Source: an uncultured SAR86 cluster bacterium (lineage in GTDB: Bacteria; Pseudomonadota; Gammaproteobacteria; Magnimaribacterales; AG-339-G14). From it: a stretch of 64,000 bases of DNA. A program made the position numbers and the translations under genes. Positions 34,226 through 62,407 of this stretch are shown in pieces. The notes under the pieces were generated by a model, which searched no databases, was not told the origin of the DNA, and saw only the letters and a list, made by a program, of their open reading frames with translations. Numbering within the stretch: position 1 is the first letter of the stretch; the number at the start of each line of letters is the position of its first letter. The DNA is taken from contig CASICS010000004.1 of NCBI GenBank assembly GCA_949373255.1, positions 41,625 to 105,624 of the forward strand. Reading direction: 5' to 3'.

Positions 34226-34327
34226 AATAATAACTTTAGAGTAAAAATTATAAGGTAAGTTTACTTGAAGACATGGATAATTTCTTGCTGTCTTAGTAAA
34301 AAAAAGGATAATAAACTCTTTTACATT

Positions 34328-35317
34328 ATGGCCACCTACACAAATTTTTCAGAAAACACACCTGACGTTAAAATCAATGTCGGAGATACCTTCGGTATAA
34401 AAGCAGATTTTGAAGTTCCCGCTTTCGCTGAAGCGAATGAATACGTTCCACAAATAGATGAATCTTATTGCTTTGATAAAGCAACGACTCTTTCAATTCT
34501 TGCTGGATTTTCCAACAACAGAAGAGTAATGGTGCAAGGTCTTCATGGCTCTGGTAAGTCTACTCACATCGAACAAGTTGCAGCTCGGTTAAACTGGCCC
34601 TGTGTTAGGGTCAACTTAGATAGTCACATCAGTCGATTAGACCTGTTGGGTAAAGATGCGATAGTAATTGAGAGCAATAAACAAATTACGAAATTTCAAG
34701 AAGGTATTTTGCCATGGGCTATTCAAAATCCCACTGCCTTGGTCTTTGATGAATACGATGCCGGAAGACCAGATGTTATGTTTGTAATTCAAAGAGTTTT
34801 AGAGGTGGAAGGCAAATTAACTTTATTAGATCAAAATAGAGTCTTAACTCCGAATCCCTTTTTTAGACTCTTTGCTACTGCAAATACAGTAGGTCTAGGC
34901 GATAGCACTGGTCTTTATCACGGCACCCAACAAATAAATCAAGGTCAAATGGATAGATGGCAAATCGTGTCATGTCTTAATTATTTATCAGTAGAATTGG
35001 AAACCAAGGTAATTCTTTCAAAAGTTCCCGAACTTAATAATAAGAAAGGCTTACTATCTGTGAAGAATATGATTGAACTAGCTAACTTAACTAGAGAAGG
35101 ATTTAAAAATGGAGACATATCCAATTTAATGTCACCAAGAACGGTCATTAGCTGGGCTGAGAATTTCCAAATTTTTTCAGATTTAGCCACTTCATTTGAA
35201 TTGAGTTTTTTAAACAAGTGTGACGAAACTGAGAAGCCAATAATTTCGGAGTACTTTCAAAGATGTTTTGATATTGAAGTTGCTGACTCAGTATCAAAGC
35301 TAATAGATAAGGATTGA
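34328..35317 (+). CDS. cobS: CobS-like MoxR-class AAA+ ATPase
   Basis: It is very close to aerobic cobaltochelatase CobS ([30 protein letters not shown], Walker [31 protein letters not shown]). I prefer the ATG at 34328 over the TTG-initiated extension at 34265. Confidence 0.8.
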
Positions 35318-37071
35318 GCGATAAATCTTCAGATCAAGTAATAAAGGATGCTCTCTCATCTTCGACGAGAGCTATATCTAAGAATAAGGAATTAGAACTC
35401 AGTTTTGGCATAGACTCGCTATCATCTAATTCAATTCCTAAGGTTTCATCATCCAAAGAAGATCTTGTTTTTTCCAGGGGCAAATCAGACAAGATTGCTC
35501 TTAAAGAAAAATATTCAACTGAATCTCCAAATAAAATAACTGGCGTTGCTGAATTAGATCAAATCTTATTCGACCAAAACGAGATAAGACTCGAAATTTT
35601 AGGTTCTCTACAATTCAGCGGCGTTAAAAATAATTTACATTCTGTTTTTCTTGAATCTTTAAAAGATTTTGCTCCTGAGACCCCCCTTCAAGGTGCAAGC
35701 AAAGCTTTACAGATTTGGCTCAAGCAAAACATCTTGAAACTCAAATTGACGCCTAAAGAAGAAAAGTTTTTAAAGCCCCTGAAAGAAGATTTAAATGCTA
35801 TTGAAAAAAAATATATTCCTCGTATCAAAGAGTCACTCGAGGTTAAAGAAGATTATTTATCTGAAATCCAAGAAGTATTGAATGCTCTTAATATTTCATT
35901 TGATGAAAACAAAGAAGAACAAGAAGACGAGGAATCATCATCTGATCAAGAGGATCAAAGTGATTCTGAGGATCAAGATGGACAGGATGAAGATCAATCT
36001 GAAGAAAGCACTCCTTCGGAACCCGAAGAAGCAGAAAATGAATCTTCTGAAGATTTTGATATGGAAGATGGAGAAACCGAGGAGACAGAAGAGGAGTGGT
36101 TAGAAAATAGATCAAAATTAGAAGAGCTTTTAGGTCAAGTTAAAGAAACTGAATATAAAGTTTTTTCGAGAGATTATGATGAGACTATTGATGCAGAAGA
36201 TTTATGTTCAGCCGAGGAGTTAAGAAGATTAAGAACACGCTTAGATCAACTCATTGATCCTAGCAAATCAGTTATAGCAAAACTTGCAAATCGCTTGCAA
36301 AGACTTCTTTTGGCGCAACAAAACCGTTCCTGGGAATATGATAAAGATGAAGGTATTTTAGATACCTCAAAGTTACATAAAATTATCACTGATCCGCTTA
36401 CCTCTTTAAGCTTTAAACAAGAAAAAGATACTAAATTTAAAGATACAGTTGTAACAATTTTAGTGGATAGCTCTGGTTCGATGAGAGGAAGATCAATGAC
36501 TACTGCAGCAATTTCTGCAGACATCATTGGAGCTACTTTGGATAGATGTAATATCAAAACTGAAATACTTGGTTTTACTACTAAAAATTGGAAAGGCGGA
36601 GAGAGTAGAAGATTATGGGTTGAATGCGGAAAACCCAATAACCCTGGCCGATTAAACGATTTACGTCATATTATATTTAAACCGGCAGATCTTGCCTGGA
36701 GAAGAGCTAAGAAAAATCTTGGCTTAATGTTAAGAGAGGGTTTGCTTAAAGAAAATGTTGATGGTGAGGCTCTTTTGTGGGCTTGTGGAAGACTATTTAA
36801 AAGGCCTGAGCAAAGGCAAATTTTAATGGTTATTTCAGATGGTGCTCCAGTGGACGATAGTACACTATCAACTAATTCAACTAGTTATTTAGACAACCAT
36901 CTGAAGGCTGTTATAAAAGAAATAGAAAATAAAACTGATATAGATCTTCTGGCTATTGGTATTGGTCATGATGTAACCAGGTATTATTCAAAAGCGGTTA
37001 CAATTCACAGAGCTGAAGAACTCGGTGGGGTAATGTTAGAGCAACTCACAGAATTATTTATTACGGATTAA
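35314..37071 (+). CDS. cobT: CobT-like protein with a central acidic tract and a C-terminal von Willebrand A domain
   Basis: It has a Glu/Asp/Ser-rich low-complexity block (about 35890-36110), then a VWA with MIDAS DSSGSM. It overlaps the cobS-like stop by 4 nt. Confidence 0.75.
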
Positions 37072-40366: not shown

Positions 40367-40481
40367 GTCCGACGATGTCCTACTCTCGCATAGAAAAAAC
40401 TACACTACCATCGGCGCTAAGTGGTTTCACTTCTGAGTTCGAAATGGATCAGGTGGGTCACACTTGCTATTGTCATCGGAC
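40367..40481 (-). rRNA. rrf: 5S ribosomal RNA
   Basis: The reverse complement aligns along its length with E. coli 5S (…CCGAACTCAGAAGTGAAACCACTTAGCGCCGATGGTAGTGTAG…GCGAGAGTAGGACATCGTCGGAC). Confidence 0.9.
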
Positions 40482-40570
40482 AAAATTCTTATTTGTAAAA
40501 AATAATGTAATCCAACTGTTGCTACTGACAAATTAACTTGACGTTTATTTCCTAGATGTCTAGAAACATA

Positions 40571-43481
<2,911 letters not shown>

Positions 43482-43852
43482 TATATGTTTCTAAACAACT
43501 AGGTCTAAAAACTGTTAAGACATTTTGAATAATAAGCGCCAATTAAATTTGCCATTAGCATTCTAAGATATAAATATCTCAGAACATTATTGTATAAATT
43601 TGAAATAAATAAATTTATTTCGAACTTGATCTATCGTTAAAGTGAATAAATTCACTCTAAAAATAGTTTGATTAATAATTGATAACATTAATTATTAATC
43701 TAAATTAATGAATATACGAGGTCTCATCAACCTCATTCATTAATCGTTGGATTACATTACTTTAAAAGAACACACATAACTAAATACATAGTTATAAAAA
43801 TTCATATAATTCGAACGGACACTCACAAATAAAAAGGCTGTGTATAAATACA
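43482..43852 (-). other. 16S-23S internal transcribed spacer, very AT-rich, with no tRNA gene
   Basis: No GC-rich cloverleaf-capable segment and no TGGTGG.../GGGTC... acceptor sequence is present on either strand. Several AT-rich hairpins are present. Confidence 0.8.
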
Positions 43853-45385
<1,533 letters not shown>

Positions 45386-53126: not shown

Positions 53127-53183
53127 AAAAATTCAGTAGCAACTTATCATCGCATTTGATAAATTGCCCCCTCAAATATTTTT

Positions 53184-53807
53184 ATGCCAACTACAAAGAA
53201 AAAAATCTTAAAAAAAGCTCCTGCTAAAAAAGTTGTAGCTAAAAAAGCTCCTGCTAAAAAAGTTGTAGCTAAAAAAGCTCCTGCTAAAAAAGTTGTAGCT
53301 AAAAAAGTTGTAGCTAAAAAAGCTCCTGCTAAAAAAGTTGTAGCTAGAAAGAGCAAATCTAAAAAGGTAATAGTAAATCCATCAGATTTTGATTCGTTTG
53401 CAAAATCATTTACTCCTTATAATTCTTCAAAAACTGAGAAGTATATGAATAAGTCTCAGAAAAAACATTTTATTGGAATCCTTAATTCTTGGAAGAATGC
53501 TTTAGAATCCGAACAAGAAAAAACAGAAAAATTAATTCAACGAGATCAAAGTAACTTTCCTGATTCATTAGATAGAGCATCGAAAGAAGAAGAATTCATG
53601 CTCGAATTAAGAAAAAGAGAAAGAGAGAGGAAATTAATTTTAAAAATCGAGTTATCACTGAAAGATATTATTGATGATTTGTATGGCTACTGCGAAACCT
53701 GCGGAGTCGATATAGGTATTAAACGCCTAGAAGCAAGGCCAACAGCAACCAAGTGCATAGACTGTAAGACAGTTGACGAAATCAAAGAAAAACAACAATT
53801 CGGTTAG
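53184..53807 (+). CDS. dksA: RNA polymerase-binding transcription factor DksA with a ~55-aa Lys/Ala/Val/Pro repeat N-terminal extension
   Basis: The C-terminal 150 aa are collinear with E. coli DksA (YMNKSQ..., coiled-coil tip DSLDRASKEEE, RERERKLI, zinc finger CETCG...CIDCK). The N-terminus is (KKAPAKKVVA)n. Confidence 0.85.
   Translation: MPTTKKKILKKAPAKKVVAKKAPAKKVVAKKAPAKKVVAKKVVAKKAPAKKVVARKSKSKKVIVNPSDFDSFAKSFTPYNSSKTEKYMNKSQKKHFIGILNSWKNALESEQEKTEKLIQRDQSNFPDSLDRASKEEEFMLELRKRERERKLILKIELSLKDIIDDLYGYCETCGVDIGIKRLEARPTATKCIDCKTVDEIKEKQQFG
53211..53345 (+). repeat. perfect 30-bp coding tandem repeat (3 full copies, one 15-bp half unit, then 1 full copy)
   Basis: The unit is AAAAAAGCTCCTGCTAAAAAAGTTGTAGCT. 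Copies are identical at the DNA level. Confidence 0.9.
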
Positions 53808-53825
53808 TATTTAATTTCTCTTTAT

Positions 53826-54296
53826 ATGACTAAAAAACTAATTAAGGTTTTTATAGGATTGGGAACGAATCAAGGAAATAAGATTAAGAATTTAGAATTA
53901 GCTAAATTGCACATCATAAATTTTCCAAGTACTAAAATTATCAAAAAATCTTCAATTTATCGTTCTGTATTCTATGGTCATATTAAGCAGTCTGTTTTTT
54001 TAAACCAAGTAATTGAACTGACTACAACATTGAGTCCAGAACTGTTTCTTAAGAAATGTTTGGAAACAGAAAGAAGGATGGGAAGAAAAAGAACAAAGAA
54101 AGGTGCTTCAAGAAATATAGACGTCGATATAATATTTTATGGAGAAAAGACTATTTCTAAACCTTTAATAAAAATACCTCATCATGACTGGGAAAATAGA
54201 CTATTTTTTGTGAGACCTTTAGTTGAAATAAATCCTAGTTACATTAAAAATAGACCGCTAGAAGTAGAAAAAAATAAAATTCATAAATTAACTTAG
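53826..54296 (+). CDS. folK: 2-amino-4-hydroxy-6-hydroxymethyldihydropteridine diphosphokinase
   Basis: It has [11 protein letters not shown] at the N-terminus, an RNIDVDII block and IPHHDW. Confidence 0.85.
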
Positions 54297-54298
54297 AT

Positions 54299-56236
54299 AT
54301 GTCAGAAAAAATTTTCGCAGTACCAGAGGCAATGAAAAAAGAAGCTATTATTTCTGAAGAAGAATTTATGACGATGTATGAATCATCAATTAATTCTCCG
54401 GAAGAGTTTTGGCCTGCTCAAGCGACAAAATATTTAGATTGGTTTTCAAGTTGGAATAATACTTATTTTGCTGATTTACCGAAAGGTGAAATTAAATGGT
54501 TCGAAGGAGCCAAATTGAATGCTGCGTACAATTGCATAGACAGACATCTGGGTTTAAAAGCTAAAGAAACTGCAATAATTTGGGAAGGTGACAACCCAGA
54601 AGAAGACCGAAAAATTACCTACCAAAGCCTTCATGATGAGGTCTGTAAATTCTCTAATCTATTAAAATCTAGAAACGTTAAGAAAGGGGACAGAGTATGT
54701 ATTTACATGCCAATGATTCCTGAAGCTGCTTTTGCCATGTTAGCTTGCGCAAGAATTGGCGCAATTCATTCTGTTGTTTTTGGTGGATTTTCAATTGAAT
54801 CTCTTAAAGATAGAATCTTAGATTCTGATTGCCAAACCGTAATTACAGCCAATGAGGGTATAAGGGGAGGCAAATCTATCCCTTTAAAAGCCAATGTAGA
54901 TGAAGCAATAAAAAAATGCCCTGGTGTCCATTCAGTCATAGTGATCAAAAGAACTGAAAATAAAGCTAATTTCAACTCCGATGTGGATGTTGATTATTTA
55001 TCAGAAAAAGAGAATTTTTTACCTGAATGCGAATGCGAAGAAATGGATTCTGAAGATCCTCTATTCATTCTTTATACATCTGGATCAACTGGAAAACCAA
55101 AAGGTGTTCTTCATACAACAGGTGGATATATGCTTGGAGCTGCAATATCGCATAAATTAGTATTTAATTATAAAGACGGAGATATCTACTGGTGTACAGC
55201 CGATGTAGGCTGGGTTACCGGTCATTCTTATATTGTTTACGGCCCTTTAGCTAATGGGGCCACAACATTAATGTTCGAAGGAATACCTACATACCCTGAT
55301 GTTTCTAGATTCTGGAATGTTATTGACAAGCACAAAGTAAATATTTTTTATACGGCGCCAACTGCAATTAGGGCGTTAATGGCTCATGGAACAAATCCAT
55401 TAAAAAATTCCTCTAGAAGTTCTTTAAAAGTAATTGGGACTGTCGGTGAGCCAATAAATCCAGAAGCTTGGGAATGGTATTTTAAAGAAGTTGGAAATGA
55501 AAACTGTCCAGTTGTAGATACTTGGTGGCAAACTGAAACGGGTAGTATTTTAATTTCTGGTTTAGCTGGATTCACAAAACAAAAACCTGGTAGTGCCTCG
55601 AGACCTTTTTTAGGGGTAGCACCAGTTCTGCTAGATGAAGAAGGAAAAGAAATTATAGGATCAGGATCTGGAAATTTAGCAATTAAAAATACTTGGCCAT
55701 CCCAAATAAGAACTGTTTACGGAGATCACGAAAGATGCATAAATACTTATTATTCAACTTATCCTGGTTATTACTTTACTGGTGACGGGGCTAGAAGAGA
55801 TGAAGATGGTTATTATTGGATCACTGGAAGAGTGGATGATGTTTTGAACGTATCAGGCCACAGACTAGGAACTGCAGAAATAGAAAGCGCATTAGTCCTC
55901 CATAACGAAGTCGCAGAAGCAGCGGTTGTTGGTTATGAACATGCAATTAAGGGTCAAGGGATATATTGTTACGTTAGTTTAATGAAGGAATCATCTCCCT
56001 CGGATCTTTTACAAAAAGAATTAATAAGCTTGATAGTTAAAGAGATAGGTCCAATCGCTAAACCAGATTTGATTCAATTTACTTTTGATTTGCCAAAGAC
56101 CAGATCTGGAAAAATTATGCGAAGAATTTTAAGGAAAATAGCTAGTAATGAAATTAATGAACTAGGAGATATTTCAACTTTAGCAGATCCTTCAATTGTA
56201 GAAATTTTAATCAATGAAAGAGTGAACACCAAATGA
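54299..56236 (+). CDS. acs: acetyl-CoA synthetase
   Basis: It is 645 aa with [19 protein letters not shown] and a C-terminal SGKIMRR with the acetylatable Lys. Confidence 0.95.
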
Positions 56237-56874
56237 GTATATTTTCCTTTAGAAACAAATCAGAACTTATAGAAAAAGTAGATGCTCTGCCTGGAAGGGA
56301 AGAACCTATTTTTATTCCAGATTTACACTATGTAAATGGTAATTCTTTGGAAGAGATTAAAAATAAAAATCTAGAAACTATAATTTTTGGAATGGGTTGT
56401 TTTTGGGGGGCGGAAAAATTTTTTTGGGAACTCAAGGGGGTTGCTTATACTTCTGTTGGTTATATTTCTGGTCATACAGCAAATGCAACGTACGAAGAGG
56501 TTTGTTCAGGTATGACTGGGCACAATGAGGTTGTGCAAGTAATCTACTCATCCGCGGAAATCTCTATTGAAATTTTATTGAAAACCTTTTGGGAAAACCA
56601 TGATCCTACGCAAGGCATGCGACAAGGCAATGACATTGGAACTCAATATAGATCTGGAATTTATTTCTCAAGCGAATCTGATTTGTTAGCAATTGAAGAG
56701 TCTAAAAATAAATATCAAAAAAGATTGACTGAGAATAATTACGGTTTAATTTCTACAGAAGTTGTTAATACTAATACTTATTATTATGCAGAGGAGTATC
56801 ACCAGCAATATTTAGCCAAGAACCCTAATGGTTATTGTGGTCACGGTGGATGTGGTATTTTATTGGACGACTAA
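56233..56874 (+). CDS. msrA: peptide-methionine (S)-S-oxide reductase
   Basis: It has the GMGCFWG active site and overlaps the acs stop (ATGA). Confidence 0.9.
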
Positions 56875-57692
56875 CTTTTCCAAAAATAATTTTGTTCTTT
56901 CAGAGCCACTCGTCCTTCCTCAATTAATTTATTTAAATGAGCTTCTAAAGAATATCTAGCAATAACTAGTAAATGTTCATCAATATCATCGTAAACAGCT
57001 TTAATTAACTCATCAAGGGTAGCTTTTGAGGCTTCAGTGATAGCATCTATAACTTTCTTTTCTCTGTACATTCTGTGACTAACAATCCAATCTACTACAC
57101 TATATGGATTCTCCATCAAGTTGCCGTGCCCAGGAGCTAATAATTTTAAATTTATGTTTTTTAGATTCTCTAAAGAGTCTATATATTGCTTCATATTTCC
57201 GTCTGGAGGAGCTATGACAACTGTCGAGCCTTCCATTATGTGATCTCCAGTGAATATCAAATTTTCCTCTTCTAGTAAAAAACATAGATGATTGGAGGCA
57301 TGTCCAGGAGTATGGATTACTTTTAATGAATACTCAGCCTCATTTATTTCATCGCCATGTTTTAAAATTTGGTTAGCTTTAAAGGTGGGATCCTGCATTT
57401 CTTTGTGAAGAGCATACATTCCCATAACCGGTGCAGCAGTTCTTTGATGAAGAAGCTTAGCCCCAGGAGAGTGGTCATTATGAGTATGGGTAACCAAAAT
57501 TTGTTTTATATCTTCCCCGCATATATCAACTATATTTTCTATATGTTCTTTAGAGGCTGGGCCAGGATCAATTACAGATATTTCTTGGTGTCCTACGAGA
57601 TAAGTATTTGTTCCTGCGCCTGTAAATACCCCACCATTGTCAGCGGTTATTCTTCTTACTAATGGCGATAACTCAGTGATCTTCATAGCCAA
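56871..57692 (-). CDS. MBL-fold metallo-hydrolase
   Basis: It has THTHNDHSPG (HxHxDH), a later TPGHA, and a C-terminal winged-helix-like tail. Confidence 0.8.
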   Translation of the reverse strand: MAMKITELSPLVRRITADNGGVFTGAGTNTYLVGHQEISVIDPGPASKEHIENIVDICGEDIKQILVTHTHNDHSPGAKLLHQRTAAPVMGMYALHKEMQDPTFKANQILKHGDEINEAEYSLKVIHTPGHASNHLCFLLEEENLIFTGDHIMEGSTVVIAPPDGNMKQYIDSLENLKNINLKLLAPGHGNLMENPYSVVDWIVSHRMYREKKVIDAITEASKATLDELIKAVYDDIDEHLLVIARYSLEAHLNKLIEEGRVALKEQNYFWKS

Positions 57693-58542
57693 TATCCCCT
57701 GGCAGAAGGCCTACCATCTTTCCGTTTTCCATAAAAAATTTAGGCTCAATACAAGACACTTCATTTTGATAATTTACTTTGTGCCTTAAAAGACTATCTG
57801 TGTCTGTGAATCCAACAATAGATTCTAAATTTTTAATTGTAGGCAGAATGATTGGAAAATTACCTTCCTTGCCTCTTTTAAGAGCATCTTCTGGAGTGAT
57901 CCAAGTGCTCTCGACACCTTCGCTTCCATCATGAATTGCATCTTGATCCTCTGGAGCTAAAGCTATAAAAAATCTAGTGCTATATCTTCTCATTTCCATT
58001 TTTGGAGTAACCCAGTGAGATACGTAAGCTAATCTATCAACAGCTAACTTTATATTTAATTTTTTACAAAGCTCTAATAATACAGGCTCTCCTTTATTCA
58101 ATTTATCTTGATAAGTATTCAGAATACTCATTTCAACATCATCGGAAGCCCCGAAGAAATCTCCATTTTCACGATAAGCTAAAAGCACTCCGCATTCTTC
58201 AAAACATTCTCTGATACAGGCTACCCAATAATTTAAGCCACCTTCTTTTAATCCTAATATTTGAGAAGCCATTTCATCTGTTAAGCCCGAACAAAAGCTA
58301 TTTATTTCAACTTCGGAATCGACAAGATCTAGTTTTCCGCCCGGGAAAACCCAAGCGCCGCCAAAATTTGTTTTGGCATTCCGCTTGATCATGAATACTT
58401 CTATTGCTTCAGAAGGAGACCTAACCAGCAGAACAGTCGCTGCTGGCCTAGGTTCTGCAGCTGGTAAATTAGGATCTGCTTTTTGAATATTTATAGATTC
58501 ATCTTTAGATAAGATTTCCGGGAAGTCTTTATCTTTAGCCAT
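57673..58542 (-). CDS. NUDIX-family hydrolase (atypical Nudix box)
   Basis: It has a REcfEEcGV helix (IRECFEECGVLL), but the upstream G-x5-E part is displaced by an insertion. Confidence 0.6.
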   Translation of the reverse strand: MAKDKDFPEILSKDESINIQKADPNLPAAEPRPAATVLLVRSPSEAIEVFMIKRNAKTNFGGAWVFPGGKLDLVDSEVEINSFCSGLTDEMASQILGLKEGGLNYWVACIRECFEECGVLLAYRENGDFFGASDDVEMSILNTYQDKLNKGEPVLLELCKKLNIKLAVDRLAYVSHWVTPKMEMRRYSTRFFIALAPEDQDAIHDGSEGVESTWITPEDALKRGKEGNFPIILPTIKNLESIVGFTDTDSLLRHKVNYQNEVSCIEPKFFMENGKMVGLLPGDIGYEDH

Positions 58543-58546
58543 CAGA

Positions 58547-59524
58547 TTAAGCTATAAATTTTGCTAAACGACTATTTATAATCTCTTCTGCTTCAGCAAC
58601 CATTCCATCTACAAGATCCTGACACGAAGGAATATCATGAATCAATCCTGCAACCATTCCACAACTCCAAGCACCATCGTCCATTTTTCCCTCTGTCATT
58701 ATTTTGGGATAAACGCCCGCTACTTCATCGAGGATATCTTCAATTTTAATATTATCGCCAAGCTCTTTTTCTTTTTCTTGAATACTTGTTACAGCAGAGT
58801 TCTTTAGGACTCTTTCTGTATTTCTAAGGGATCTCATTATAAGAGTCGTGTCTAATTCAGAAGCAGCAACAAGAGCATCCTTAACGTTTTGATGAACTGG
58901 CGCTTCTTTAGTTGCTATAAATCTAGTACCTAAATTAACTCCTTCTGCACCTAATGCTAAAGCAGCAGCAAGTTGTTTACCGTTACCTATTCCACCTGAA
59001 GCAACGAAAGGGATGTCTAGTTCTTCAGCAGCCCTAGGTAATAAAATCATATTTGGAATATCATCTTCTCCAGGATGTCCGCCACATTCGAAACCATCAA
59101 CACTAGCCGCGTCGCAACCAATATCTTGAGCTTTTAAGGCATGTCTAACTGAAGTACATTTATGTATTACTTTGATATCCGCTGCTTTTAAAGACTCTAT
59201 GTAAGCTTGAGGATTTCTTCCTGCAGTTTCTACTACTTTAACTCCACCTTCAATTATTGCTTGAATATACCCAGGATAATCAGGCTGATTGAACATTGGT
59301 AGAAAAGTTAAATTAACGCCAAAAGGTTTGTCTGTCATTTTATGACATCTAGCTATTTCTTTTGCTAAGTCTTCTGGAGTTTTTTGAGTAAGCCCGGTAA
59401 TGATTCCTAGGCCGCCTGCATTTGAAACAGCTGCTGCCATTTCTGCGAATCCTACATAATGCATCCCACCTTGAATTATAGGATGTTGAATTCCAAACAT
59501 TTCTGTTATTTTAGTTTTAAGCAT
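58547..59524 (-). CDS. nitronate monooxygenase / FabK-like FMN oxidoreductase (NMO family)
   Basis: It has a TIM-barrel FMN protein layout (IIQGGMHYVG, VIHKCTSVRHA, ASGGIGNG). Confidence 0.8.
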   Translation of the reverse strand: MLKTKITEMFGIQHPIIQGGMHYVGFAEMAAAVSNAGGLGIITGLTQKTPEDLAKEIARCHKMTDKPFGVNLTFLPMFNQPDYPGYIQAIIEGGVKVVETAGRNPQAYIESLKAADIKVIHKCTSVRHALKAQDIGCDAASVDGFECGGHPGEDDIPNMILLPRAAEELDIPFVASGGIGNGKQLAAALALGAEGVNLGTRFIATKEAPVHQNVKDALVAASELDTTLIMRSLRNTERVLKNSAVTSIQEKEKELGDNIKIEDILDEVAGVYPKIMTEGKMDDGAWSCGMVAGLIHDIPSCQDLVDGMVAEAEEIINSRLAKFIA

Positions 59525-59624
59525 TATTTCTCCCTTTACTTTAAATAATTAATTTATAACTATATCTTTAATGACGTATGTTGCAATAAATGATACAAAC
59601 GTCTTACTAAAATAGAGCGAAAAA

Positions 59625-60461
59625 TTGAAAGTACAAGAAATTAAAACTAATAAGTTGCTAGCCAAGTTAAAGCGTTCTCCTGCAGATCATAAAGGCAAAT
59701 TTGGACACGTAATGATTGTAGGTGGAAATATTGGCTTTGGCGGAGCAGGTCTTTTAGCGTCTAAAGCTGCAGTTTGCAGTGGTGCAGGATTAGTTTCTTT
59801 AGCTACAAGATCAGAACACGTCAGCGCTTCATTAAATTTTTGCCCAGAAGTTATGGCCAAACCAGTTAATAACGGTCAAGCATTAGAAGAATATTTAGAT
59901 AAGCCTTCTGTCATATGCATTGGCCCTGGATTAGATAAAAATTACTGGGCCGAACAAGTTTTATATAAGACTTTAGAAATTTCAAACAAAAGAAATATAC
60001 CTATTTTAATTGATGCAGATGGATTAAATTTATTGCCAGAATTTATAAAAAAAATTCCACTTCCAAAAAAAGTAATAATAACTCCTCACGAGGGCGAAGC
60101 AGCAAAGTTACTTAATACCTCTGTAGAGAAAATAAAATCAAACCGAATTTTAGCTGCAAAAAAATTATCGAAGAAATACTCTGCAGTTGTTGTATTAAAA
60201 GGTCACGAAACAATTGTCTGTTCAAAGGATAATATTTTTCTTTGCAACAAAGGCAATCCGGGTATGGCTTCTGGGGGCATGGGGGATGTATTAAGCGGCA
60301 TTATATCTAGTTTAGTTGCTCAAAAACTGAGTCTTTTAGAATCAGCTTGTCTAGGCGTAAATCTTCATGCAGAAGCTGGAGATGAATATGCAGAAGCTAT
60401 AGGTCAACGAGGGTTAATCCCATCCGATGTTATCGAAATTGTGAAAGAACTTATTCTTTAA
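59625..60461 (+). CDS. nnrD: ADP-dependent NAD(P)H-hydrate dehydratase (YjeF C-terminal domain only)
   Basis: It has HKGKFGHVMIVGG, PGLD and GMASGGMGDVLSG motifs. It uses a TTG start, and no YjeF_N epimerase domain lies upstream. Confidence 0.8.
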   Translation: MKVQEIKTNKLLAKLKRSPADHKGKFGHVMIVGGNIGFGGAGLLASKAAVCSGAGLVSLATRSEHVSASLNFCPEVMAKPVNNGQALEEYLDKPSVICIGPGLDKNYWAEQVLYKTLEISNKRNIPILIDADGLNLLPEFIKKIPLPKKVIITPHEGEAAKLLNTSVEKIKSNRILAAKKLSKKYSAVVVLKGHETIVCSKDNIFLCNKGNPGMASGGMGDVLSGIISSLVAQKLSLLESACLGVNLHAEAGDEYAEAIGQRGLIPSDVIEIVKELIL

Positions 60462-60464
60462 GCA

Positions 60465-60908
60465 ATGACTGATGAACTGATATTAGATTCTTTGGTTGAA
60501 ACAAAAAAGTTAGGCCAAAAAATTGGCAGTCAATTATCTAAAGTAAAAAAATCTCAGGCATATATAATTTTTTTAAATGGAGACCTTGGATCGGGAAAAA
60601 CTACTTTAGTTAAAGAGATTATTTCGGCTTTAGGTGTTGAGGAATCTGTTACCAGCCCTACTTTTACAATTATTGAGCCCTACTTGTCTGAGCACCGAAA
60701 TATTTATCACATGGATCTTTATAGAATTGAAAGCGCATCTGAACTGGCTGCTATAGGTATAAACGAGTATTGCAAAGAAGAGAATTCTATAATTTTTGTA
60801 GAATGGCCCGAGAAAGCTTTTGGCTACCTCAATGATTTTGATATGAAGATATCTTTAGAGCATTTATCCGAAACGAAGAGGAAATGCAAAATTACATTAA
60901 AGACCTAG
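60465..60908 (+). CDS. tsaE: tRNA t6A37 biosynthesis ATPase TsaE
   Basis: It has the P-loop GDLGSGKTT and SPTFTI and HMDLYR motifs. yjeF-yjeE adjacency is present. Confidence 0.85.
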   Translation: MTDELILDSLVETKKLGQKIGSQLSKVKKSQAYIIFLNGDLGSGKTTLVKEIISALGVEESVTSPTFTIIEPYLSEHRNIYHMDLYRIESASELAAIGINEYCKEENSIIFVEWPEKAFGYLNDFDMKISLEHLSETKRKCKITLKT

Positions 60909-61265
60909 AGCTTTTTTAATATCTGGATGAAAATATGATTCTGGCTTCATGATTTTACCAGCTTCGTTCTTAATAGCTTTGCCATCTATGAATTTACTCA
61001 TATTGGAAGCTTTAACTTCGTTCCAAACTTTTTCAAAATCTATTCCACAACTTGAACACATTCCCATAATTACCCAAACCATATCAGCCAACCCATCTGC
61101 AACTTCAATCATATTTTGTTCTTGAAATGCCTCTAAAGTTTCTTTGTACTCTTCGGTTATTAAATTCATATATAGCTCCGGTTGAGCTCCATTTAAAGTT
61201 AAGTTTTCTTGAATTGGTTGATCGCCTGCCTTCATAAAATTTTCTACGTCTTCTTGATAAGTCAT
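60897..61265 (-). CDS. MazG-like nucleoside triphosphate pyrophosphohydrolase (small all-alpha NTP-PPase)
   Basis: The E-x2-E...E-x2-D pattern (TEEYKETLEAF ... EVADGLADM) is typical of MazG/HisE-type four-helix proteins. Confidence 0.55.
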   Translation of the reverse strand: MTYQEDVENFMKAGDQPIQENLTLNGAQPELYMNLITEEYKETLEAFQEQNMIEVADGLADMVWVIMGMCSSCGIDFEKVWNEVKASNMSKFIDGKAIKNEAGKIMKPESYFHPDIKKALGL

Positions 61266-61340
61266 GTTTCCTCTTTTTAATTGGTGATATCTAATCTATT
61301 TTAAATGACTTATGAATTTAATCAGGTAAATTAACTATAA

Positions 61341-61775
61341 ATGGAAATAATTTTAAAAGATGGTTCTTATTATGAAATTCAACAAGACGATTTGTTGTCC
61401 TGGCAAAGAACTTATACTGATTGCAATGTATTTCATGAAATAAATGCCGCAAGAGAATGGAGTGAAGCCAATCCTTCTAGGCGAAAAACAAAAAGAGGCA
61501 TTAGAAGATTTCTAAATGCATGGCTCTCTAAAGCTCATAAACTTAAAGGAAGTCCTTTTATTTATACTCAGGAAGGCAAGACAAATAAAATTGAGGAATC
61601 TATGCATGATATTTCATGGGTTGAAGAAGAAAATAGACTGGAAACCTCTAAGTGGTATATCAAAAACAAAGGTTTTTATTTTCTAGATGGCAAGAAATAC
61701 ACTTCTCCTTATGGAGTAAAAAAAGTCGTTAATCTTTCTGAAAAAATAAAAACTTTAAAAGAAAATAAGAAGTGA
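61341..61775 (+). CDS. hypothetical protein
   Basis: It is a 144-aa ORF with good coding appearance. From memory, its N-terminal W..Y....V..E....R.W...NP.RRKTKRGI..F...WL pattern resembles small prophage-encoded proteins. This is unverified. Confidence 0.5.
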   Translation: MEIILKDGSYYEIQQDDLLSWQRTYTDCNVFHEINAAREWSEANPSRRKTKRGIRRFLNAWLSKAHKLKGSPFIYTQEGKTNKIEESMHDISWVEEENRLETSKWYIKNKGFYFLDGKKYTSPYGVKKVVNLSEKIKTLKENKK

Positions 61776-61844
61776 AATTCTATTTCTTATAAAAAGTTCT
61801 TCTGGTATAGTTCGCGATCTAAATTATTGAAAGCTTAAACAAAG

Positions 61845-62186
61845 ATGAAAGAAGGAATACATCCAGATTATGCAGCATTAAAAGCAACTTGTAGTTGCGG
61901 AAATGTCATAGAAACAAGATCTACTCTCGAGGGTGATCTATCGTTAGATATATGTTCAGCATGCCATCCTTTTTATACTGGTAAACAAAAAATTGTTGAT
62001 ACTGGAGGAAGAGTTGATAGATTCAAAAAACGTTTTGCTAAAACTGCTGGTGCAGCAACGCCAACTGAAAAACAAGAAGCTCCTGCTGAGGAAGTAGTTG
62101 CTGAGGAAGTAGTTGCTGAGGAAGTAGTTGCTGAAGAAGCTCCTGCTGAGGAAGTAGTTGCTGAGGAAGTAGTGCTGAGGAAGTAG
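61845..62186 (+). CDS. rpmE: 50S ribosomal protein L31 (type A, Zn-binding) with an acidic repeat tail. As assembled, the ORF is truncated by a 1-nt deletion, and the repeat continues in the -1 frame to 62332.
   Basis: The core MKEGIHPDY...CSCG...[24 protein letters not shown] is collinear with E. coli L31 (Cys16/18/37/40). The tail is ([10 protein letters not shown])n. Confidence 0.9.
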
Positions 62187-62290
62187 TTGCTGAAGAAGCT
62201 CCTGCTGAGGAAGTAGTTGCTGAGGAAGTAGTTGCTGAAGAAGCTCCTGCTGAGGAAGTAGTTGCTGAAGAAGCTCCTGCTGAGGAAGCT
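62076..62290 (+). repeat. coding tandem repeat of two 15-bp units (GCTGAGGAAGTAGTT and GCTGAAGAAGCTCCT), about 14 units
   Basis: The repeat is read directly from the sequence. One unit at 62161-62174 lacks a T (GTAGTGCT instead of GTAGTTGCT). Confidence 0.9.
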
Positions 62291-62407
62291 TCTACTGAAG
62301 AAAATTCAGAAGATTCTCCTAAAGAAAAATAACTTACTTTTAATTATCTTTGAAATCTTACTCAGCGCAGAGATTTTATATTCTTACAACTAACCTTAAA
62401 CAAGTAA

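Follow-up and report, generated by a model that had tools for sequence, protein, structure and literature searches.

Oppositely charged pentapeptide tails on DksA and ribosomal protein L31 in a SAR86 cluster bacterium

In a stretch of 64,000 nucleotides (contig CASICS010000004.1 of assembly GCA_949373255.1, positions 41,625 to 105,624) from an uncultured SAR86 cluster bacterium, hereafter the window, the genes for DksA (dksA) and ribosomal protein L31 (rpmE) each encode a charged tail of pentapeptide repeats, which is Lys-rich in DksA and Glu-rich in L31. We consider it probable that these are two independently evolved, intrinsically disordered tails, each a conserved trait of SAR86, which replication slippage has recently re-expanded and homogenised into perfect repeats of 15/30 nucleotides. 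Their mirror likeness is the product of a general pattern (Ala, two like charges and two small or beta-branched spacers, mostly AP or VV), of the A or G that distinguishes the first base of Lys and Glu codons, and of an AT-rich codon bias. The mirrored pair is not evidence for a common origin or a partnership, because the likeness is such as codon bias and a common pattern would give. The features of the two genes, all on the forward strand, are as follows.

53184..53807, +, dksA, an open reading frame (ORF) of 207 residues with a Lys-rich N-terminal tail followed by a canonical DksA core
53184..53375, +, N-terminal tail of DksA, residues 1-64, delimited by composition and by disorder predicted with AlphaFold2
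53211..53345, +, nine perfect 15-nucleotide units (KKAPA/KKVVA) in tandem, with strain-variable copy number
61845..62186, +, rpmE (L31) ORF as read, 113 residues, ending AEEVVLRK and a stop
62074..62293, +, acidic repeat tract of L31, AEEAP/AEEVV units over two reading frames
62173..62174, +, one-base deletion (frameshift) inside the L31 repeat, between GTAGT and GCTGAG
62174..62332, +, rest of the L31 tail, read in the shifted frame and closing with ...AEEASTEENSEDSPKEK; the stop codon TAA is at 62330-62332

The charged tails of DksA and L31

The initial annotation had reported repeat tracts with an A-x-x-A-P/A-x-x-V-V pattern on both proteins, and these tracts are real, as both Tandem Repeats Finder and the translations recover them. 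The DksA tract (53211-53350) has a period of 15/30 and a score of 198. Its units are invariant at the DNA level, with KKAPA encoded by AAA AAA GCT CCT GCT and KKVVA by AAA AAA GTT GTA GCT. The translated ORF starts with MPTTKKKILKKAPAKKVVAKKAPAKKVV..., and its 64-residue tail contains 26 Lys/Arg and no acidic residue, giving a charge of +26. In the AlphaFold2 model, residues 1-3 and 5-58 of the tail have a pLDDT (predicted local distance difference test) below 50 and lack secondary structure. An antisense ORF over this region (53147-53356, reverse strand, 69 residues, FLATTFLAGAFLATTF..., containing FLATTFLAGA...) was rejected as a gene, being a mere reverse-complement reading of the Lys repeat.

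The remainder of the protein is a DksA core in every respect that we could compare. Pfam assigns DksA_N (PF21157, 7e-22) and zf-dksA_traR (PF01258, 9e-11), and residues 76-207 align with residues 20-151 of E. coli DksA (1TJL) at E=1e-45. The DxxDxA motif at the tip is conserved (FPDSLDRA here and FPDPVDRA in E. coli), all four Cys residues of the CxxC...CxxC zinc finger are kept relative to 1TJL, and the core is modelled by AlphaFold2 with two long helices (H90-123 and H129-166). By sequence, the first ~64 residues are an addition to a DksA that carries all of the canonical hallmarks. The tail also scores 47.7 bits with the Pfam HC2 profile (PF07382), which represents a histone-H1-like nucleoprotein family and has a curated cutoff of 40. 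With its Lys/Ala/Pro pentapeptides, its lack of acidic residues and its predicted disorder, the tail resembles H1-like, HC2-type sequences, and by analogy it may bind DNA.

The L31 tract (62074-62302) has a period of 15 and a score of 263 in Tandem Repeats Finder. Its units are likewise invariant in DNA, AEEAP being encoded by GCT GAA GAA GCT CCT and AEEVV by GCT GAG GAA GTA GTT. The Pfam family Ribosomal_L31 (PF01197) covers residues 1-65 at 1e-31, the Cys motif of type A (CxC...CxxC) is present as TCSCGN...CSACHPF, and solved type-A bL31 chains match the window L31 over residues 1-66. Judged from these sequence features, the window L31 is a type-A (Zn-binding) bL31. A PDB search with its acidic tail returned nothing at E<=1, so that no solved structure has a similar tail, and we found no description in the literature of acidic L31 tails or of the DksA tails of SAR86.

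The initial annotation had taken the L31 tract as a single reading frame and had missed the deletion at 62173/62174. A T is absent between these two positions, which breaks the L31 frame, and no continuous frame leads to the C-terminal end. Eight further repeat units and the end STEENSEDSPKEK can be read in the following frame, before its stop codon. When the missing base is restored, L31 has 162 residues, including a tail of 98 residues after the RFKKRF motif that closes the core. This frame-corrected tail contains 35 acidic residues and has a charge of -31. The charges recur with a periodicity of about five residues in both the DksA and the L31 tails.

The same C-terminal end, STEENSEDSPKEK, is in frame in the relatives P0121, P0122, P0123 and L017, and is found as VSTEENSEDSPKEK in L019. 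The L017 contig is 99.7% identical to the window, and its L31 is in frame with 141 residues. In the other assemblies, the tract coincides with a run of N (a scaffold gap) in L019, and the L022 contig ends inside it. Because L019 is gapped and L022 is broken at exactly this tract, it is evidently hard to assemble. The deletion is probably an error of assembly or sequencing or, failing that, a very recent slippage mutation. There is no sign of programmed frameshifting here, the nearest relative being simply in frame. We also considered that the frameshift might be real and work like a contingency locus, with slippage switching the acidic tail on and off or between a long and a short form. The deletion sits in a hypervariable repeat, and the truncated product would still contain the full L31 core and six repeats, as such a switch would require. 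However, the closest relative is in frame, the breaks and gaps of other assemblies at the tract point to assembly difficulty, neither the repeats beyond the deletion nor the conserved end show decay, and the site has no homopolymer run. We therefore regard the switch as quite unlikely.

As for what the tails may do, the Lys tail of DksA would be a histone-H1-like arm that binds DNA or another polyanion independently of sequence, as in the Streptomyces protein DdbA (compared below). It would thereby keep a canonical DksA, a factor of the RNA polymerase secondary channel, concentrated on the nucleoid or on promoter/polymerase-DNA complexes. In solved ribosomes, the C-terminal end of bL31 is located where the central protuberance meets the 30S head. 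An acidic tail that leaves this end would form a solvent-exposed anionic brush, repelled by rRNA.

Tails of the relatives and the source of their likeness

Relatives were collected as 16 genome loci and 7 metagenome loci with narrow peptide patterns, and the sample for co-variation is therefore small. A Lys-rich DksA tail is present in all 13 SAR86 genome loci (13/13) and in the SAR86-like metagenome contig L030. Among 120 relatives there are 97 distinct DksA tails, all of them Lys-rich (39% K) and 39-80 residues long. The AKKAP/AKKVV unit is found only in the closest relatives of the window. The ~95% identical relative L019 has AQKVM/AKKAP in DksA and keeps the acidic unit of the window in L31, other lineages have VKKAP/VKKAV or, in L007, AKKAP/AKKAA, and in most DksA relatives the tail is essentially non-repetitive (KKKPVKKKVLKKKVV...). 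DksA lengths range from 182 to 223 residues among close relatives, and near-identical proteins differ by steps of 5 or 10 residues (182, 192 and 202; 197 and 207). The repeat units are identical in DNA within a lineage and different between lineages, indicating recent slippage and homogenisation.

In 12 other SAR86 loci, L31 is encoded ~8.5 kb downstream of dksA, and it has an acidic tail in 12/12. These proteins have a type-B (Cys-less) core and a mostly non-repetitive tail. Non-repetitive relatives already hold the seeds of both repeats, KKAP.KK[VI] and EAP.EEVV. Outside these loci, type-A L31s with acidic pentapeptide tails of 32-87 residues are abundant in a distant lineage of low guanine-plus-cytosine (GC) content, in which the L31 gene adjoins priA and the TsaE protein shares only 39% identity with its counterpart in the window. 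Many L31 tails of this lineage (P0125, P0129, P0133, P0148 and others; L025 10001-10420) consist of two blocks, acidic repeats and then a basic terminus, AKKKAAKKTKKK or AKKANTKKASKKAPAKKSKKQ, and thus carry both charge types on one tail. In a small sample of outgroup DksA proteins, the low-GC members L014 and L034 (34% GC) have a Lys-rich tail, whereas L035 (GC 56%), L036 (GC 49%) and L015 do not. We found no sequence overlap that would link the loci L014 and L034 to the lineage with L31 next to priA.

The likeness of the two tracts at the DNA level was assessed against codon usage. A hand alignment in the initial annotation had given 23 identical bases out of 30 between the DksA and L31 units, with four of the seven differences being the first-position A/G changes that separate Lys from Glu; we re-derived these counts and they are correct. 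The units had been called near-identical on this basis, and here only the count holds. With both peptides fixed and the codon usage of the window applied (Ala GCT 44%, Lys AAA 81%, Glu GAA 76%, Pro CCT 40%, Val GTT/GTA 77%), the expected identity is 20.7/30, and at least 23 matches arise with a probability of 0.11. The observed value is not above chance, and once the peptide pattern is given the DNA carries no further signal. The VV codons come in opposite order in the two genes, DksA units always having GTT GTA and L31 units always GTA GTT, which argues against recent copying between them.

If one 30-nucleotide unit had been copied between the genes, converted by A<->G changes at first positions and then amplified, both the 23 shared bases and the same AP/VV alternation in the two tracts would be explained. 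We hold this to be extremely unlikely. Besides an identity within the range of codon usage and the consistently reversed VV codons, the Lys-rich DksA tails and the acidic L31 tails are older than the perfect repeats across SAR86, the AP/VV seeds are present in non-repetitive relatives, and neither a tract of mixed charge as an intermediate nor homology of the flanking DNA beyond the repeat was seen. The spacers are also common in each family on its own: the dipeptides between charge pairs are AP (43%), AV (20%) and VV (15%) in L31 tails, and VV (18%) and AP (14%) are the first and second most frequent in DksA tails. Because of codon usage, VV order, the age of the tails and these independently common spacers, the shared origin that the initial annotation had proposed is unsupported, and its other suggestion, strongly parallel evolution, is favoured in a weak sense.

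An exhaustive search with the acidic tract against 1.84 billion cluster representatives (50%-identity clusters) yielded 45 protein clusters at E<=1e-3, and Pfam scans of 30 of the 45 gave 18 families, including cNMP-binding, CheW, Big_2, Caudovirus prohead protease and ubiquitin-conjugating enzyme. P0262 and P0257 contain the exact acidic repeat of the window L31, and an unrelated protein, P0258, contains the Lys version (AKKAP/AKKAV/AKKVV). In other organisms, acidic repeats are present at the C-terminus of four ribosomal proteins, uL5 (P0257), bS6 (P0276), bS16 (P0288) and type-B L31 (P0280). Like the window L31, these place the same pentapeptides at a ribosomal-protein C-terminus, but they belong to other organisms and mostly to other ribosomal proteins. 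The occurrence of Ala, two charges and AP, VV or AV spacers on so many proteins indicates a general pattern, in which the two spacer positions are taken by A, P, V or T. The presence of the same repeats on many unrelated proteins, which had been named in advance as speaking against a special relation between the tails, is thus observed at the level of the database and not inside the 64-kb window, in which a six-frame scan found neither repeat in any other gene.

Several points weigh against two independent tails with a likeness of general origin. Only 2 of the ~55 genes of the window carry such repeats, and the generic pattern is not demonstrable within this genome. The two tails co-occur in every SAR86 locus examined, as a functional pairing would also predict, and their lengths are nominally correlated (rho=0.67, p=0.05) in nine complete pairs, which are phylogenetically non-independent. 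The binding partners suggested above for the DksA tail are drawn from analogy, and what is proposed for the L31 tail is conjecture.

A functional link could take the form of electrostatic pairing, in which the Lys tail of DksA binds the Glu tail of L31, DksA is thereby titrated or recruited by ribosomes or free L31, and the control of rRNA promoters becomes tied to the ribosome pool. In addition to the nominal correlation of lengths, such pairing would agree with the presence of both tails in every SAR86 locus where both genes are readable, with charges of similar size (+26 in DksA and -31 in the frame-corrected L31) and with the shared ~5-residue charge periodicity. SAR86 is a genome-streamlined clade, and both tails are kept although lengthening a highly expressed ribosomal protein would be costly in such a genome. 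However, the presence of both tails wherever both genes are readable makes them a fixed clade trait rather than a correlation. Co-variation, which the initial annotation had proposed to look for in tail length, is absent at the level of the repeat unit, since the DksA unit of L019 has changed while its L31 unit has not. The window and L017 share the same DksA tail but differ by 21 residues in L31 (162 residues after frame correction and 141), L007 combines the longest DksA tail (80 residues) with an ordinary L31 tail of average length, and the net charges of the two tails are not significantly correlated (rho=-0.33, p=0.38, n=9 pairs). Acidic L31 tails are also found in the distant priA-adjoining lineage and, elsewhere, on type-B L31, the motif is generic, and L31 would not be needed for a Lys-rich tail to bind DNA or rRNA. 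Taken together, we judge pairing to be very unlikely.

On physical grounds, the DksA tail and the L31 tail could plausibly be in direct contact, but none of our results supports this. Histone H1 and prothymosin-alpha bind each other with high affinity through oppositely charged disordered tracts without folding, and TonB has mirrored (Glu-Pro)n/(Lys-Pro)n repeats side by side in one protein. These are physical precedents for pairing, but they concern eukaryotic proteins or tracts within a single protein. We give very little credence to a disordered, charge-driven complex of the SAR86 tails through which ribosomes or free bL31 would sequester DksA from DNA and RNA polymerase. If it did exist, it would provide a direct feedback from ribosome abundance to the control of rRNA and ribosomal-protein promoters in a genome-streamlined oligotroph.

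At the other extreme, the tails might be irrelevant slippage products of an AT-rich genome that are tolerated at protein termini, that is, neutral drift of low-complexity sequence. The variation of copy number between near-identical strains, the fast turnover of repeat units and the distribution of Lys-rich DksA tails in the outgroups (present in the low-GC L014 and L034, absent from L015 and from L035 and L036 with GC of 49-56%) are all consistent with drift. Nevertheless, the presence, charge sign and approximate length of the tails are kept across all sampled SAR86 species despite complete sequence turnover, and the non-repeat L31 end is kept in frame in relatives. A tail on a highly expressed ribosomal protein would also be a cost in a small genome. 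Neutral drift is therefore unlikely in our judgment, and we prefer two conserved tails that arose independently and were recently remodelled by slippage.

A possible mosaic in L31 and other features of the window

The core of the window L31 appears to be a mosaic (61845-62060, compared with L007 18504-18914 and L022 16365-16695). Residues 10-40 form a type-A Zn-ribbon, which has 61-68% identity with type-A L31s from the priA-adjoining lineage. Residues 1-9 and the 36-residue segment that starts at HPFYTG are closer to SAR86 type B (30/36 vs 22-23/36 for the latter segment). The L31 at this position is of type B in 12/12 other SAR86 loci. The DNA of the window is homologous to that of L007 and L022 as far as 61871; with L007 the homology resumes at 62405, whereas the L022 contig breaks off within the L31 gene. 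The sequences suggest an in-place swap of the Zn-binding segment in the window L31, which may bear on zinc economy.

A 144-residue ORF (61341-61775, forward strand) without a Pfam match lies directly upstream of L31. It is found at the same position in three related contigs with gene calls (L017 9497-9931, L019 16264-16698 and L022 15864-16298). A complete rRNA operon is located ~8 kb upstream of dksA, on the opposite strand.

40367-45385, -, complete rRNA operon, with 16S at 43852-45385, 23S at 40570-43482 and 5S at 40367-40480

ARAGORN found no tRNA in the 369-nucleotide 16S-23S spacer or in the rest of the window. Two adjacent ORFs at 34265-37071 (forward strand), judged by eye from their translations, have the appearance of an ATPase of the AAA type and a protein of the von Willebrand A type, and together they resemble a CobS/CobT pair. 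Apart from the L31 tail, the window has just one strongly acidic stretch (35884-36138); it lies in the second of these ORFs (585 residues) and is rich in Asp, Glu and Ser, non-repetitive and unrelated to the AEE repeats.

Comparison with known systems

Acidic tails on L31, and elsewhere on uL5, bS6 and bS16, are an undescribed and apparently recurrent ribosomal feature, whereas the Lys-rich tail of DksA has several counterparts among bacterial H1-like sequences. AlgP of Pseudomonas (PMC9239181) and other bacterial H1-like tails have Lys-Ala-Pro repeats that bind DNA and, in the case of AlgP, polyphosphate granules; their repeat unit and host protein differ from those of SAR86 DksA, and they are not known to be linked to DksA or the ribosome. 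Hc2 (hctB) of Chlamydia trachomatis has Lys/Ala-rich pentamers with a strain-variable copy number (PMC2848022). Hc2 is a stand-alone nucleoid protein, whereas the match of SAR86 DksA to HC2 is compositional and lies on the tail of a transcription factor.

The closest parallel is DdbA (SCO2075) of Streptomyces coelicolor, in which five Lys-rich pentapeptide repeats make up part of an H1-like domain at the N-terminus, fused to a DksA-like domain (PMC3643593). The N-terminal domain of DdbA alone binds and condenses DNA, and the N-terminal half is reported to be confined to streptomycetes (PMC3643593). Compared by description, DdbA and SAR86 DksA both have H1-like Lys pentapeptides ahead of a domain of the DksA type, which combines a Cys4 zinc finger with acidic residues at the tip. 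In contrast to SAR86 DksA, DdbA is an actinobacterial paralogue with a 93-residue extension and (S/T)(A/T)AKK repeats, whereas the SAR86 protein has a gammaproteobacterial canonical core, AKKAP/AKKVV units and an evolution resembling that of variable-number tandem repeats. Because the SAR86 core is closest to DksA of the E. coli type, the two tails were likely acquired independently.

An H1-like tail on a DksA domain has thus already been described in DdbA, and SAR86 adds a proteobacterial DksA with canonical hallmarks. SAR86 bacteria are among the most abundant in the ocean and are uncultured, and a fusion of this kind would bear on the control of growth rate in streamlined oligotrophs. If the tail does tether a canonical DksA to DNA, SAR86 would represent the second, independent fusion of DksA with a nucleoid-binding arm after DdbA.

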